Assembly: GCF_048403405.1 (NCBI RefSeq)
Contig: NZ_CP183129.1
Direction: 5' to 3' (one strand)
From: Escherichia coli
GTDB taxonomy: Bacteria; Pseudomonadota; Gammaproteobacteria; Enterobacterales; Enterobacteriaceae
Length of the DNA stretch: 64,000 nucleotides
Made by a program: the position numbers and the translations under genes. This document shows positions 11,773 to 60,876 of the stretch, piece after piece; the first letter of the stretch is position 1; every line of letters begins with the position of its first letter. Below the pieces are notes generated by a model that was given only the letters and a program-made list of their open reading frames with translations, had not been told where the DNA came from and searched no databases.

Positions 11773-12567
11773 ATGGATCTGTTGTACCGGGTAAAAACGC
11801 TTTGGGCCGCGCTGCGCGGTAATCATTACACCTGGCCTGCTATCGATATCTCTCTTCCCGGCAATCGCCATTTTCATCTGATTGGCAGTATTCATATGGG
11901 CAGCCACGATATGGCTCCCCTGCCCACCCGTTTGCTCAAAAAGCTCAAAAACGCCGATGCGCTGATCGTCGAGGCGGATGTTTCCACCAGCGATACGCCT
12001 TTTGCTAATTTGCCTGCCTGCGAGGCGCTGGAAGAGCGCATTAGCGAGGAGCAACTCCAAAACCTGCAGCACATTAGCCAGGAGATGGGCATTTCTACCT
12101 CACTCTTTTCTACCCAACCGCTGTGGCAAATCGCGATGGTTCTTCAGGCGACGCAGGCACAAAAACTGGGGCTGCGGGCAGAATACGGTATCGATTACCA
12201 GCTATTGCAGGCGGCGAAGCAACAACATAAACCCGTGATTGAACTGGAAGGGGCTGAAAACCAGATTGCCATGTTGCTCCAGCTCCCTGACAACGGACTG
12301 GCGCTGCTGGACGATACGCTGACCCACTGGCACACCAATGCACGGTTGCTGCAACAAATGATGAGCTGGTGGCTGAATGCGCCGCCGCAAAATAATGAAA
12401 TAACGCTGCCTAATACGTTCAGTCAGTCGCTGTATGATGTGCTGATGCATCAGCGAAATCTCGCCTGGCGGGACAAATTATGCGCCATGCCGCCGGGGCG
12501 CTATGTGGTCGCAGTCGGTGCACTACACCTGTATGGAGAAGGGAATTTGCCGCAGATGTTGCGCTAA
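11773..12567 (+). CDS. ybaP: TraB-family protein YbaP (264 aa)
   Basis: Complete ORF with AGGGAGG RBS; sequence recognisable. Confidence 0.9.
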   Translation: MDLLYRVKTLWAALRGNHYTWPAIDISLPGNRHFHLIGSIHMGSHDMAPLPTRLLKKLKNADALIVEADVSTSDTPFANLPACEALEERISEEQLQNLQHISQEMGISTSLFSTQPLWQIAMVLQATQAQKLGLRAEYGIDYQLLQAAKQQHKPVIELEGAENQIAMLLQLPDNGLALLDDTLTHWHTNARLLQQMMSWWLNAPPQNNEITLPNTFSQSLYDVLMHQRNLAWRDKLCAMPPGRYVVAVGALHLYGEGNLPQMLR

Positions 12568-12649
12568 AAAAATGGCCAATATCGCTATTGGCCCGTCAAA
12601 GAGGAATTTCATATTTTTATTATTATGCCGTCACTTTAAGCGACGGTGT
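12566..12649 (-). ncRNA. chiX: ChiX (SroB/MicM) small regulatory RNA, 84 nt
   Basis: Reverse complement reads ACACCGUCGCUUAAAGUGACGGCAUAAUAAUAAAAAUAUGAAAUUCCUCUUUGACGGGCCAAUAGCGAUAUUGGCCAUUUUUUU with the CCUCUUUGACGGG seed and terminator hairpin; lies between ybaP and ybaK. Confidence 0.85.
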
Positions 12650-13254: not shown

Positions 13255-13278
13255 GTGCCGGATGCGAACATCCGGCAC
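13255..13278. terminator. Hairpin between convergent ybaK and ushA (REP-like, bidirectional terminator)
   Basis: GTGCCGGATG-cgaa-CATCCGGCAC, with TTT on the plus side. Confidence 0.6.
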
Positions 13279-16613: not shown

Positions 16614-18290
16614 ATGCATCACGCCACCCCGCTTATCACCACCATTGTTGGCGGCCTTGTGCTCGCCTTTATCCTCGGCATGCTGGCCAATAAACTACGT
16701 ATTTCTCCTCTGGTGGGATATCTGTTAGCGGGTGTGCTGGCAGGACCATTCACTCCGGGCTTTGTTGCCGATACCAAGCTTGCGCCGGAACTGGCTGAAC
16801 TGGGCGTCATTCTGTTGATGTTTGGCGTCGGTTTGCACTTTTCGCTGAAGGATTTGATGGCGGTAAAGGCCATCGCCATTCCCGGTGCGATCGCCCAGAT
16901 AGCCGTGGCGACGCTGCTGGGTATGGCGCTCTCCGCCGTGCTGGGCTGGTCGTTAATGACCGGTATCGTGTTCGGCTTATGCCTTTCCACCGCCAGTACC
17001 GTGGTGTTACTGCGCGCACTTGAAGAACGGCAATTAATAGACAGTCAGCGTGGGCAAATCGCCATCGGTTGGTTGATTGTGGAAGACCTGGTAATGGTTC
17101 TGACGCTGGTGTTGCTGCCCGCAGTGGCAGGAATGATGGAACAAGGCGATGTGGGCTTTGCCACTCTTGCTGTCGATATGGGGATCACCATCGGCAAGGT
17201 GATCGCATTTATCGCCATTATGATGCTGGTAGGTCGCCGTCTGGTGCCGTGGATTATGGCACGCAGCGCAGCAACCGGTTCCCGTGAGCTGTTTACCCTG
17301 TCGGTGCTGGCGCTGGCGTTAGGGATTGCCTTTGGTGCGGTGGAGCTGTTTGATGTCTCCTTTGCACTCGGTGCGTTCTTTGCCGGGATGGTACTGAACG
17401 AGTCTGAACTGAGTCACCGTGCCGCCCACGATACGCTGCCATTGCGCGACGCGTTTGCGGTGCTGTTTTTTGTCTCCGTCGGGATGTTGTTTGATCCGTT
17501 AATTCTGATTCAGCAACCGCTGGCAGTGCTGGCGACGCTGGCGATTATTCTGTTTGGTAAGTCGTTAGCCGCGTTTTTCCTGGTGCGACTGTTTGGTCAC
17601 TCCCAACGTACGGCATTAACTATCGCCGCCAGCCTGGCGCAAATTGGTGAGTTCGCGTTTATCCTGGCGGGACTGGGCATGGCGCTGGATCTGTTGCCGC
17701 AAGCCGGGCAGAACCTGGTACTGGCAGGGGCGATTTTGTCGATTATGCTCAACCCGGTCCTGTTTGCGCTGCTGGAGAAATATCTGGCGAAGACCGAAAC
17801 GCTGGAAGAGCAGACGCTGGAAGAGGCTATCGAAGAAGAGAAGCAGATCCCAGTGGATATTTGCAACCATGCGCTACTGGTAGGTTACGGTCGTGTAGGC
17901 AGCCTGCTGGGGGAGAAATTGCTCGCCTCTGATATTCCTTTAGTGGTGATTGAGACGTCACGAACCCGTGTTGATGAACTGCGAGAGCGCGGGGTCCGCG
18001 CAGTATTGGGCAATGCGGCGAACGAAGAAATTATGCAACTGGCGCATCTGGAATGTGCTAAATGGCTGATCCTGACGATTCCCAACGGTTATGAAGCGGG
18101 CGAGATTGTGGCATCTGCCCGCGCGAAAAATCCGGATATTGAGATTATTGCCCGCGCCCATTATGACGATGAAGTGGCGTATATCACCGAACGTGGGGCA
18201 AATCAGGTAGTGATGGGTGAGCGTGAAATTGCTCGTACTATGCTGGAACTGCTAGAAACGCCACCGGCGGGTGAGGTGGTGACGGGGTAA
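16614..18290 (+). CDS. ybaL: CPA2-family cation:proton antiporter YbaL (558 aa)
   Basis: Complete ORF; membrane domain plus C-terminal Rossmann/TrkA-like domain. Confidence 0.9.
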   Translation: MHHATPLITTIVGGLVLAFILGMLANKLRISPLVGYLLAGVLAGPFTPGFVADTKLAPELAELGVILLMFGVGLHFSLKDLMAVKAIAIPGAIAQIAVATLLGMALSAVLGWSLMTGIVFGLCLSTASTVVLLRALEERQLIDSQRGQIAIGWLIVEDLVMVLTLVLLPAVAGMMEQGDVGFATLAVDMGITIGKVIAFIAIMMLVGRRLVPWIMARSAATGSRELFTLSVLALALGIAFGAVELFDVSFALGAFFAGMVLNESELSHRAAHDTLPLRDAFAVLFFVSVGMLFDPLILIQQPLAVLATLAIILFGKSLAAFFLVRLFGHSQRTALTIAASLAQIGEFAFILAGLGMALDLLPQAGQNLVLAGAILSIMLNPVLFALLEKYLAKTETLEEQTLEEAIEEEKQIPVDICNHALLVGYGRVGSLLGEKLLASDIPLVVIETSRTRVDELRERGVRAVLGNAANEEIMQLAHLECAKWLILTIPNGYEAGEIVASARAKNPDIEIIARAHYDDEVAYITERGANQVVMGEREIARTMLELLETPPAGEVVTG

Positions 18291-18324
18291 ACGGTGGTTG
18301 CCGGATGTAAAATATGAAAAATAT

Positions 18325-18408
18325 GTAGGCATGATAAGACGCGCCAGCGTCGCATCAGGCATCGAGAGCCAAATGCCAGATGCGGCGTGAACGCCTTATC
18401 TGGCCTAC
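18325..18408. repeat. Two REP units in opposite orientation (BIME) between ybaL and gsk
   Basis: GTAGGCATGATAAGACGCGCCAGCGTCGCATCAGGC and GCCAGATGCGGCGTGAACGCCTTATCTGGCCTAC match the enterobacterial REP pattern. Confidence 0.8.
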
Positions 18409-18422
18409 GAACCGACGATAAC

Positions 18423-19727
18423 TTAACGATCCCAGTAAGACTCTTCCAGGCTGTCTTCACGCTCCGGTAAGCCGCGCGTTAAACGAGGTGAATGCTGGTT
18501 CAGTACCTGATAGCTCACACGGTTAGCATATTTACACACCTGCGCTAACGATGAATAAGTTAACCAGGTGAATTTATGTTTGCTGGAGTTTGGTACGTTG
18601 CTACGGTGATAGCTGTTGGCGGTAATGTCATGCAGCAACGCTGCCAGTGCGCCATCCCCCGCTCCGTTGGTGTTCATGATTTTTTCCGGCCCGCCCATAT
18701 ACGGCGCAATGTGCGAATAGACACGCAGCGGATTCTGGCAATCCTTGTGGCGCATGGCACGGCTAAACTCATACTGGTTAAATTCCGCTATAGCGCCCGG
18801 CAGCAGCGGATGCTGGGTTTTACGTTTCGCTTCGTCTTCGGTAAAGCCCGCCATATACAAGCCGATTGGCCCTGCGGTGCACAGCACCAGATCAACCCAG
18901 TCCAGCGCCTTGTCAGATGCCAACAACGGATCGCTTTCTCCGGTCAACGCTTCGGCCTCATCTTCGTTCATCGCAAGGATAGAAACGTGATCTTTGAGGA
19001 ATTGCTGCCACCACTGCGGGTTCTCGGCAATGACAAACTTGGTGCCCAGCGTCAGCACCACCGGTACGTTATATTTTTTCGCGTACTCAATGGCTTTCAT
19101 GGTTGCTTCCGGCATGGGTTCACCCGGCTTGCAACGCACCAGATAAGAGGTGAGAACCAGTGCCGAGGCTCCGGCAATCACATCTTCCGGAATACTTTCA
19201 GCCCGCAGCTGGTTCATGTGGCCAGGGCTGATAGCAAAGGTACGTTCCCCGGACTCGCCAATCAGCGTAAAGCAACGACCAATCGGGCCATCCACGCCTT
19301 GTAGATAGTTAAGATCGGTACGGCTGGAGGTATTACACAGGTAACGATAGGCATAGCTGCCAATTTCAATATTGCTGCACATGACGCCCAGCAGCACCGA
19401 ACGGTCGTCCGCGAGCACCGAGTAGTTGTGCATGGTGTTACCAATAGTGCCACCCGCAAATTGATGGGTAATCAGATTTTTCTGTTTTAGTTCCTGATAA
19501 AGCGCTTCGGCTACGTCATCCTCAATCACCAGTGAATGCCCGGCGCTTAATCCATAACGCTCAATGAATTCATCATCCACTTTCGCTTCAATATCGACCA
19601 GCGTTTGATCGATACCCACTACCCAGGCGGCGCTGGTTTCGTTTTCTGGCTGGAATTGCTGAAGCAGCGGATCGCGTGCGTTTACGGGGAAGTAATGTTT
19701 GGATTTACGTTTACCGGGAAATTTCAT
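18423..19727 (-). CDS. gsk: Inosine-guanosine kinase (434 aa)
   Basis: Complete ORF; sequence recognisable. Confidence 0.93.
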   Translation of the reverse strand: MKFPGKRKSKHYFPVNARDPLLQQFQPENETSAAWVVGIDQTLVDIEAKVDDEFIERYGLSAGHSLVIEDDVAEALYQELKQKNLITHQFAGGTIGNTMHNYSVLADDRSVLLGVMCSNIEIGSYAYRYLCNTSSRTDLNYLQGVDGPIGRCFTLIGESGERTFAISPGHMNQLRAESIPEDVIAGASALVLTSYLVRCKPGEPMPEATMKAIEYAKKYNVPVVLTLGTKFVIAENPQWWQQFLKDHVSILAMNEDEAEALTGESDPLLASDKALDWVDLVLCTAGPIGLYMAGFTEDEAKRKTQHPLLPGAIAEFNQYEFSRAMRHKDCQNPLRVYSHIAPYMGGPEKIMNTNGAGDGALAALLHDITANSYHRSNVPNSSKHKFTWLTYSSLAQVCKYANRVSYQVLNQHSPRLTRGLPEREDSLEESYWDR

Positions 19728-22710: not shown

Positions 22711-22749
22711 AAAAGAAAAATGCCGGATGACACGAAGGTCATCCGGCAT
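22711..22749 (-). terminator. Intrinsic terminator of htpG
   Basis: 12-bp stem ATGCCGGATGAC/GTCATCCGGCAT immediately after the htpG stop, followed on the minus strand by a U-rich tract. Confidence 0.7.
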
Positions 22750-25724: not shown

Positions 25725-27656
25725 TCAAATGGGGCGGATACTTTCTTCATCCAGCTCCGCATCGAAGAATCGACGCAGGGTCTGAATATTATTATCCGCA
25801 ATAATGGACTCGCGCGCCTGCGCAAGTTTTTCTTCGTATATCGCCTGACGCCATTCCAGCGGCGTACGCACCGCGGGATTATCATCTTCAACGATAGTCA
25901 GTTCAACCGTTGAACCTTTTAACGTGCTCAACGCTTCAGCCAGTTTTTGCTGTGCGCCGCGGTTGTTCAAATGCCGCTGAGAGGAGCGCAAATGCAGACA
26001 TACTGCGTTGTCGCTCTCCTCTTTCCAGGCATTTAACGCCACCTGTTCGACCAGTTTTGGTAGCGAAAGTTGACTCACCTGTGCCGCCCACGGGTCGCGC
26101 TCAATGGCTTCTGCTGCCAGCTTCGCCGCCAGTTCCGGCGTTTTTTCATGTTCCAGCGCTTTTTTCAGCGCCTTCGGCGTGGCGACCACTTCTTTTTGCT
26201 GCATCACTGGAGTGGTCGCCTTCCAGCGATACGCTTCTTTTTTGGCTGGCGCTTTTTCCAGCGCCGATGGCACCGGACGCGCCTGAACGCGATCGGTGAC
26301 CGAAGCCAGTCTTTCCAGCGCAGCGTTATTCACCGGCCGCGCGCGGGTAGCGGCTGCCGGTTCACTCTTTTTTGCTTTGGTTGCTCCCTGCACGCGCTGC
26401 AACTGCTGGCGCGCCGCCAGCACCTGGCTGGTGGTTTCCGGGAGCGGTACAGTCGGTGCCTGCTGCGGCGCTGATTGCGGTTGCGGCGGCACCTGGGTTG
26501 GCGTCATTACTGCCGTTGGCGCGACGGGCGCAAAGGACTGGCGTGGCACTTCTGGCTCAGGTAGCGGCATACGCGGATGGAACGCCAGAGCGCGAAGCAG
26601 CGTCATCTCAACGCCCATACGGCGGTCTGGCGCATACGGTAATTCTTTGCGACCAATCAACAGCGTCTGATAGTAAAGCTGAATATCCGTCGGCGGTATG
26701 GTGCGCGCCAGTTCACGCATCCGCAGCTCGATAGCGGCCATGTCGTTGCCAAGTGCAGCAGGCGAAAGTTGTACCATCGCAATACGATGCAACAGGCCGA
26801 GCATTTCCACCAGCAACGCTTCCCACTCGATACCACGGGCAGCGGCTTCATTAATCAGCGCCATTACGCGCTCGCCGTTGGCCTCGACCATCGCTTCAAC
26901 CAGCGACAGCGCCTGATCGTCGTCAAGCGTACCCAGCATCGCACTGACCGCCTGAGTTGAAACCTGGCCGTCACCGCTGGCAATCGCCTGGTCGGTCAGA
27001 CTTAAGGCATCTCGCAGGCTGCCTTCAGCGGCGCGCGCCAGTAATTGCAACGCCCGCGGCTCGTGAGCGATATGTTCTTCGTTGAGGATGTGCTCAAGCT
27101 GATGGCGAATTTGCTCGACATCCAGCGCCTTGAGATGGAATTGCAGACAGCGCGACAAAATCGTCACCGGCAATTTCTGCGGATCGGTCGTCGCCAGCAG
27201 AAACTTAACGTGCTCCGGCGGCTCTTCAAGGGTTTTTAACAGTGCGTTAAAGCTGTGGCGCGACAGCATATGCACTTCGTCGATCAGATAAACTTTGAAA
27301 CGACCACGCGCCGGAGCGTACTGGACGTTATCCAGCAGGTCGCGAGTGTCTTCAACTTTAGTGCGCGAGGCGGCGTCGATTTCAATCAGATCGACAAAGC
27401 GCCCCTGCTCGATTTCACGACAGTTATCGCACACGCCGCACGGCGTCGCGGTAATGCCGGTTTCGCAGTTTAGCCCCTTCGCCAGCAGTCGGGCGATAGA
27501 GGTTTTTCCGACGCCACGGGTGCCGGAAAAAAGATAAGCATGATGAATACGCCCTAACGACAAGCCGTTCGCCAGTGCGGTCAGCACATGTTCCTGGCCG
27601 ACGACGTCAGCAAAGGTTTGTGGGCGCCATTTTCGGGCTAAGACCTGATAACTCAT
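25725..27656 (-). CDS. dnaX: DNA polymerase III tau subunit (643 aa, full-length product)
   Basis: Complete ORF; AAA+ clamp-loader motifs. Confidence 0.96.
   Translation of the reverse strand: MSYQVLARKWRPQTFADVVGQEHVLTALANGLSLGRIHHAYLFSGTRGVGKTSIARLLAKGLNCETGITATPCGVCDNCREIEQGRFVDLIEIDAASRTKVEDTRDLLDNVQYAPARGRFKVYLIDEVHMLSRHSFNALLKTLEEPPEHVKFLLATTDPQKLPVTILSRCLQFHLKALDVEQIRHQLEHILNEEHIAHEPRALQLLARAAEGSLRDALSLTDQAIASGDGQVSTQAVSAMLGTLDDDQALSLVEAMVEANGERVMALINEAAARGIEWEALLVEMLGLLHRIAMVQLSPAALGNDMAAIELRMRELARTIPPTDIQLYYQTLLIGRKELPYAPDRRMGVEMTLLRALAFHPRMPLPEPEVPRQSFAPVAPTAVMTPTQVPPQPQSAPQQAPTVPLPETTSQVLAARQQLQRVQGATKAKKSEPAAATRARPVNNAALERLASVTDRVQARPVPSALEKAPAKKEAYRWKATTPVMQQKEVVATPKALKKALEHEKTPELAAKLAAEAIERDPWAAQVSQLSLPKLVEQVALNAWKEESDNAVCLHLRSSQRHLNNRGAQQKLAEALSTLKGSTVELTIVEDDNPAVRTPLEWRQAIYEEKLAQARESIIADNNIQTLRRFFDAELDEESIRPI
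26362..27656 (-). CDS. dnaX: DNA polymerase III gamma subunit (431 aa) made by programmed -1 frameshift in dnaX
   Basis: Slippery A-AAA-AAG at codons 428-430 (plus 26367-26373); the -1 frame reads AAA AAA GAG UGA, adding one Glu then a stop at 26362-26364. Confidence 0.85.
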
Positions 27657-43016: not shown

Positions 43017-43130
43017 GGGTGGGGGCCCTGCCAGCTACATCCCGGCACACGCGTCATCTGCCTTGGCTGCTTCCTTCCGGACCTGACCTGGTAAACAGAG
43101 TAGCGTTGCGGGAGAACCAACAGAGCCCCC
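43017..43130 (-). ncRNA. ffs: 4.5S RNA (signal recognition particle RNA), 114 nt
   Basis: Reverse complement reads GGGGGCUCUGUUGGUUCUCCCGCAACGCUACUCUGUUUACCAGGUCAGGUCCGGAAGGAAGCAGCCAAGGCAGAUGACGCGUGUGCCGGGAUGUAGCUGGCAGGGCCCCCACCC. Confidence 0.95.
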
Positions 43131-54725: not shown

Positions 54726-54776
54726 TTATTCCGGGTGTCGCCGGATGCGGCTTGAGCATCCGGCACCACAAAACGT

Positions 54777-60689: not shown

Positions 60690-60772
60690 AGAGCTCTCTC
60701 TTAGTTTAATTTCCGCCAGGTAATCAGATGACACGACTGTGCTTCACGCCATCTATTAACATGTACGTCAGT

Positions 60773-60799
60773 ATATGGGGATGTTTCCCCCACATTCAA
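60773..60799 (-). promoter_or_regulatory. sigma32 heat-shock promoter of lon
   Basis: Minus strand reads TTGAAT-N13-CCCCATAT, about 85 nt upstream of the lon ATG. Confidence 0.75.
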
Positions 60800-60876
60800 C
60801 GCCGAGAATAGAGGAAAAATTAAAGGGGAGATAAAATCCCCCCTTTTTGGTTAACTAATTGTATGGGAATGGTTAA

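Follow-up and report, generated by a model that had tools for sequence, protein, structure and literature searches.

The window, a stretch of 64,000 nucleotides of an Escherichia coli chromosome, carries the genes ybaL and gsk in convergent orientation, separated by a gap of 132 nt (18291-18422) in which lie two palindromes of the REP family (Table 1). The gene names follow the annotation of the homologous stretches in E. coli K-12 MG1655 and in strain TUM14771. The palindrome next to ybaL is of the z2 type and the one next to gsk of the y type; they face each other across a short linker, with the GTAG foot of the z2 REP (18325-18328, plus strand) and the CTAC foot of the y REP (18405-18408) at the outer ends. 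The 3' UTR of ybaL enters the REP element, and that of gsk opens with the y REP in its GTAG-first reading. The original prediction had placed the pair at 18325-18408, and these coordinates are exact, running from the first G of the GTAG foot to the last C of the CTAC foot. It had also described the REPs as filling the gap; they do lie within it, but they occupy only 84 of its 132 bases, with 34 nt left over next to ybaL and 14 nt next to gsk. An 85-aa ORF that crosses the element on the minus strand (18203-18460) was treated as an artefact of reading through the palindromes antisense to ybaL.

Table 1. Features of the ybaL-gsk gap and of the genes that flank it (positions in the window).
Feature	Positions	Strand	Length	Remarks
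ybaL coding sequence	16614-18290	+	558 aa	TAA stop at 18288-18290; from the ORF list
ybaL-side spacer	18291-18324		34 nt	Read from the sequence
z2-type REP	18325-18360	-	36 nt	Minus-strand reading GCCTGATGCGACGCTGGCGCGTCTTATCATGCCTAC; consensus and blastn-short match
Head-to-head linker	18361-18374		14 nt	ATCGAGAGCCAAAT; short, in the position of an S-type linker
y-type REP	18375-18408	+	34 nt	GCCAGATGCGGCGTGAACGCCTTATCTGGCCTAC; consensus and blastn-short match
gsk-side spacer	18409-18422		14 nt	From the y REP foot to the gsk stop
gsk coding sequence	18423-19727	-	434 aa	Stop codon at 18423-18425 (plus-strand positions); from the ORF list
Rfam RF02564 (naRNA4) match	18328-18405	- (gsk-sense)		Full model; 74.3 bits against a gathering score of 59.5

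Both palindromes can be recognized as REPs by comparison with published sequences, namely the 36-nt y consensus GCCGGATGCGGCGTGAACGCCTTATCCGGCCTACGA quoted in PMC12306157 and the three REP queries given in the Methods of PMC11208160. The z2 consensus agreed with the minus strand at 35 of 36 positions and the y consensus with the plus strand at 32 of 34, and neither found a match in 100 dinucleotide-preserving shuffles of the window. With the PMC11208160 queries, blastn-short gave E = 1e-13 for the z2 REP and E = 2e-8 for the y REP, while the z1 query produced partial matches only. These three queries gave no further significant REP match in the 64 kb, nor was any other REP foot found there; the element is a single unit. 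That two REP palindromes of opposite orientation lie between the convergent genes had been predicted, with alignment to the REP consensus named as the check, and the alignments bear this out for both halves, at one mismatch for z2 (minus strand) and two for y (plus strand).

Of the departures from consensus, the one in the z2 REP, at 18331, breaks a single pair near the stem foot and was flagged by cmscan as well; the two in the y REP (G to A at 18378 and C to T at 18401) pair with each other as A-T and are thus compensating, the stem being kept. Both stems retain the G.T plus C/T mismatch and both REPs retain the GTAG tetranucleotide, and both of these features are reported to be needed if TnpAREP, the REP-associated tyrosine transposase thought to spread and reshape the REP family, is to bind and cleave (PMC3333891). 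REPs are defined as imperfect palindromes of 30-40 nt with a GTAG/CTAC foot and a two-base stem mismatch (PMC3333891), and both palindromes of this locus show the consensus, the foot, the stem mismatch, an extragenic position and many copies per genome, a 321-nt query hitting a median of 10 places per genome in megablast searches. Against this background it is next to impossible that the element is no REP pair but a palindrome arisen by chance or a simple intrinsic terminator: beyond the mere presence of a hairpin nothing speaks for it, the consensus matches are absent from the shuffles, copies are dispersed in every genome, and a search of 18000-18800 for a G+C-rich hairpin followed by a T run found no intrinsic terminator on either strand.

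The two REPs are arranged as in BIME-2, the class made up of a z2 and a y REP with a short linker (REP classes summarized from Gilson/Bachellier in PMC3333891): one z2 and one y REP are inverted head-to-head across a short linker, in an extragenic position at the 3' ends of genes. BIME-2 elements are, however, described as tandem arrays (PMC3333891), whereas the ybaL-gsk element is a single unit, and its class assignment rests on REP composition, orientation and linker. It resembles BIME-1 (z1 plus y, with a long L linker and an IHF site) in being an inverted REP pair, but the partner of y at this locus is z2 rather than z1, and its 14-nt linker is too short for the L motif. We conclude that 18325-18408 is almost certainly one ordinary BIME, composed of an inverted, head-to-head z2 and y REP in the manner of a BIME-2 unit and identical in sequence to that of K-12. 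The ybaL-gsk REP pair is already known, and REP or BIME elements where convergent genes end belong to the textbook features of E. coli.

Comparison with K-12, which had been proposed as a check on copy number and orientation, leaves nothing to reconcile. The gap is identical to that of K-12 MG1655 (NC_000913.3, 501,430-501,561) at 132 of 132 bases, with the same genes in the same orientation and no difference in REP copy number; the flanking coding sequence differs by 2-4%. Over 800 nt on either side the divergence is 4.25% towards ybaL and 2.25% towards gsk, nearly all of it at third codon positions. The original prediction had called the element ordinary for E. coli and rated it of low interest, an assessment that suits both its membership in the REP family and the identity of the gap with that of K-12. 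As a separate observation, the divergence from K-12 in the 3' half of ybaL (17491-18290, 4.25%) is high for a comparison between E. coli strains, while the same segment is 100% identical in TUM14771, which suggests a recombination patch or a distant phylogroup.

Among 5,426 complete E. coli genomes, the two-REP allele is by far the most common (about 4,658 genomes), and the locus is uninterrupted in 5,254 of the 5,426 as judged with a 932-nt query spanning it. A one-REP allele is carried by 591 of the genomes; its gap measures 82-83 nt and holds a different, y-like REP in unchanged orientation. The two-REP allele of phylogroup B2-type strains, Nissle among them, is a variant in which the z2 foot is canonical and 4 of 84 positions differ from the window. 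Strain STEC316, considered as a third allele, proved to carry the ordinary two-REP allele. The ybaL-side spacer of the window offers a possible trace of allele replacement: the 10-mer TTGCCGGATG at 18298-18307, followed directly by an A+T-rich stretch (18308-18324), is the head of a y-type REP and also heads the REP of the one-REP allele. From this comparison of alleles the fragment may plausibly derive from an ancestral single REP like that of the other alleles, although within the window it amounts to a 9-nt match without significance (E = 4.8).

In 13 of the 5,426 genomes the gap contains small hypothetical genes, either one or two, that run in the direction of gsk. Such gap genes were seen in Escherichia sp. 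E1V33, of a cryptic lineage (locus L043, 10471-11461), and in E. coli strains 2017-02-2CC (L063, 1177-2146) and A30 (L064, 1125-1797). One such gene, of about 150 aa, gave a sub-threshold Pfam match to DUF7336, and another, of about 94-111 aa, gave no Pfam match. The insert of E1V33 is bordered by a z2 REP on one side and by the REP of the one-REP allele on the other, the y REP being cut after ATGC. In 2017-02-2CC, a second, diverged copy of the 3' end of ybaL lies in the flank towards gsk.

In natural strains the element also serves as a landing site for two REP-specific insertion sequences, IS621 and IS1397, which directly bears out the suggestion that it might be a site of IS insertion. Queries for the insertion junctions placed IS621 at the CT core of the z2 CTAC foot of this same locus in 34 of the 5,426 genomes and IS1397 in the z2 loop in 99; these are counts of genomes rather than of independent events, and each insertion may represent one or a few clones. 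Two interrupted genomes were examined in detail. In strain MEW, IS621 lies at the z2 foot with the minus-strand junctions CTTATCAGGC-CT-[IS]-CT-AC, and in strain E09, IS1397 lies in the z2 loop. Insertion into REP loops is a known habit of IS1397 (PMC1525189). IS621, a bridge-RNA recombinase element, naturally targets an 11-mer, ATCAGGCCTAC, whose core is CT (Durrant et al., 2024; PMC11208160). In the other strains it sits at ATCAGGC-CT-AC of the ybaL-gsk z2 REP. The window itself contains no insertion sequence. Its REP feet read ATCATGCCTAC (z2) and ATCTGGCCTAC (y), each one mismatch away from the canonical 11-mer with the CT core intact, and the exact 11-mer occurs at neither foot. Position 4 of the target is reported to be tolerant (PMC11208160), and both ATCATGCCTAC and ATCTGGCCTAC are among the natural targets in the supplement of that study.

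Outside E. coli proper the gap holds a changing cast of repeats. A degenerate pattern for the gsk 3' end retrieved 53 loci, in 48 of which gsk and ybaL are convergent; in these 48 enterobacterial species the gap ranges from 36 to 1,239 nt, with a median of 87 nt. It contains one REP in E. albertii, two and four REPs in the divergent genomes labelled E. coli E69 and SCPM-O-B-8794, respectively, six REPs as three tandem pairs in E. whittamii, z1/y arrays in Citrobacter, and arrays of CCCTCTCCC...GGGAGAGGG palindromes in Lelliottia, Huaxiibacter and Buttiauxella. Despite their unrelated sequences, 38 of the 48 gaps are strongly folded on both strands (z < -2), which argues that what is conserved is the presence of a strong palindrome in the gap and not its sequence. 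Across public genomes the ybaL-gsk gap passes from a single REP to a pair, gains tandem units in sister species, takes up small genes and is hit repeatedly by the two REP-specific insertion sequences; it makes a worked example of the life of such repeats. The CCCTCTCCC...GGGAGAGGG palindromes, which we take to be boxC-like, belong to a different repeat family in the same gap niche; in a Lelliottia sp. (L047), a Huaxiibacter (L054) and Buttiauxella izardii (L059) they form tandem arrays of up to 789 nt with GGGTGAGGG flanks.

One comparison stands apart from this turnover. In Escherichia sp. MOD1-EC7003 (L055) the BIME shows 0 differences in 84 positions and the gap 3 in 132, although the flanking genes differ by 6.2% overall and by 16% at third codon positions. 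The tract without any difference extends over 151 nt (18317-18467) and takes in the BIME, the gsk-side spacer and the last 15 codons of gsk. Had the 84 nt diverged as fast as third codon positions, some 14 differences would be expected, and the probability of finding none is about 1e-6. Read from the alignment, this identity would mean either that the locus-specific sequence is constrained or that lineages have exchanged a short tract. The B2 allele, being more divergent, speaks on the same kind of comparison for mosaic inheritance over uniform constraint, and we think it distinctly improbable that the exact BIME sequence of this locus is under selection rather than shared through a short recombination tract. 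Were it selected, the reason could be a dedicated two-way insulator or 3'-end element serving both gsk and ybaL or, alternatively, an HU-binding RNA of the naRNA4 kind released from the gsk 3' UTR.

Predicted folding of the gap is strong in both RNA and DNA. As RNA, the entire gap reaches -50.9 kcal/mol on one strand and -50.5 kcal/mol on the other (z = -4.3 and -4.4, respectively), and none of 200 shuffles folded as well; as DNA, it gives z = -4.7. The z2 hairpin alone is worth -15 kcal/mol and the y hairpin alone about -19.6 kcal/mol. A state with two separate hairpins is predicted at about -35 kcal/mol and a single long hairpin formed between the two REPs at about -45 kcal/mol, the latter being the minimum-energy state. 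A promoter scan returned one weak promoter-like site, located inside ybaL, no more than were found in shuffles.

A single Rfam family, RF02564 (naRNA4), is passed at the ybaL-gsk gap; its plus-strand score of 51.6 bits falls below threshold. Both hairpins match the model, and the linker is aligned but not conserved. A snoU13 match was discarded as due to chance (E = 1.9). The REP325 array consists of six units, and naRNA4 corresponds to one of them, 77 nt long, in which Y and Z2 hairpins are joined by a linker (PMC4550694). The ybaL-gsk element resembles it in being a 77-78-nt unit made of a y-complement hairpin, a linker and a z2 hairpin (Qian et al., 2015; PMC4550694), but REP325 has six units, between yjdM and yjdN, and the ybaL-gsk element has one, with an unrelated linker. 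The model is in effect that of a generic BIME-2 unit. With both hairpins matched, the hit confirms the BIME-2-unit architecture but is no evidence for the HU-binding nucleoid function demonstrated for REP325, and in annotation a 'naRNA4' match at ybaL-gsk is to be read as a BIME-2 unit and not as a gene for a nucleoid RNA.

What the element does locally can be approached from its folding and position. Since the gap lacks an intrinsic terminator, transcripts of both genes would run into the element, whose RNA would fold either as two hairpins or as the one long inter-REP hairpin. The folded RNA could then block 3'-to-5' exonucleases, the classical role of REPs as exonuclease barriers (PMC12306157), and fix stable 3' ends for both mRNAs; it could also limit read-through into the opposing gene, with the mRNAs ending in or just past the hairpins. 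The suggested stabilization of mRNA 3' ends is in this sense consistent with the strong folds predicted on both strands and with the lack of an intrinsic terminator. For this element, a role as a 3'-end hairpin for both mRNAs, blocking exonucleases and limiting read-through, is the likeliest of the local roles, yet in our judgement evenly balanced between being right and wrong; the wider account, an ordinary BIME with a 3'-end hairpin role that also serves as a landing site for insertion sequences, is probably the best explanation overall. Neither gsk nor ybaL is mentioned in the supplements of PMC3333891, PMC4550694 or PMC12306157. The element is in itself of little importance, REPs and BIMEs at convergent gene ends being commonplace in E. 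coli.

Several observations speak against a fixed role and bear on the other readings of the locus. The content of the gap turns over within E. coli (591 single-REP genomes, 13 with extra genes, 133 with an insertion sequence in the z2 REP and, in B2 strains, changes at 4 of 84 positions), and a reporter has been inserted in this gap, at K-12 position 500,700, as a neutral site (PMC4390576). The turnover of alleles, tolerance of insertions, B2 variation and use as a neutral site together imply that the specific sequence is dispensable. On another reading the BIME would be a neutral passenger, either selfish or a relic, that is tolerated between the convergent genes and serves no selected function at this locus: one-REP, two-REP, IS-inserted and extra-gene alleles coexist in E. 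coli, the gaps of related species contain unrelated repeats and span 36-1,239 nt, and reporter cassettes have been placed there. Yet nearly every species retains a strong palindrome, as seen in 38 of the 48 gaps, and the A-T pair of the y stem, the change at the z2 foot and the linker are identical across lineages whose flanks have diverged by 6%, against the expectation of some 14 differences at third-position rates; a short recombination tract could mimic such conservation. On balance we regard neutrality as a serious reading, but one that is somewhat less probable than not. A third possibility, by analogy with other loci, is that DNA gyrase binds and cleaves the y REP and helps to relieve the positive supercoiling that accumulates where transcription units converge. 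BIME-2 elements are enriched in gyrase cleavage sites, mainly in their y REPs, and blocking transcription does not abolish these sites (PMC6379681); the ybaL-gsk element has the BIME-2 composition and is flanked by convergent genes. Cleavage sites occur in only some BIME-2 elements, however, and the strong named ones are multi-unit arrays (PMC6379681), whereas this locus has a single unit; gyrase cleavage at its y REP is plausible by that analogy, and gyrase action as the explanation of the element is rather unlikely.

The distance between the element and the gsk stop codon raises the further prospect that the REP dampens gsk through translation, by stalling the terminating ribosome and lowering the output of Gsk. 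Under the Liang-Rudd-Deutscher rule, in the form in which it is quoted in PMC12306157, a REP less than 16 nt from a stop codon leads to translation-coupled down-regulation. The y REP comes, with its GTAG foot, to within 14 nt of the gsk UAA, and this foot is paired in the minimum-energy fold; but when the y REP is folded alone its first paired base lies 18 nt from the stop, outside the rule. By these predicted structures gsk would be a borderline case, and damping of gsk is in our view unlikely. ybaL, at 34 nt from the nearer REP, is excluded from the rule. Least probable among the functional readings, and very doubtful here, is that the gsk-strand transcript acts as a nucleoid RNA that would bind HU and bridge cruciform DNA as reported for REP325. 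The match to RF02564 well above its gathering score, with both hairpins aligned, is what one would expect of such an RNA, for which two hairpins such as Z2 and Y are the stated requirement (Qian et al.; PMC4550694). A pass with what is in effect a generic BIME-2 model says little about function, however; moreover, the linker differs, the locus has one unit rather than the six of REP325, and the predicted thermodynamics favour one long hairpin over two (-45 against -35 kcal/mol).

Some further palindromes and structured RNAs were noted elsewhere in the window. Three short hairpins of the form TGCCGGATG...CATCCGGCA, at 13256-13277, 22721-22748 and 54741-54765, have the head of a REP but no CTTATC..GGCCTAC tail; such minimal REP-like palindromes escape a search with the strict consensus. 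Rfam thresholds were also passed by the sroB sRNA (12566-12649, minus strand), the dnaX frameshift element (26328-26392, minus strand), the 4.5S (SRP) RNA (43026-43122, minus strand) and the sraA sRNA (60761-60856, plus strand), each of them expected in this part of the E. coli chromosome.
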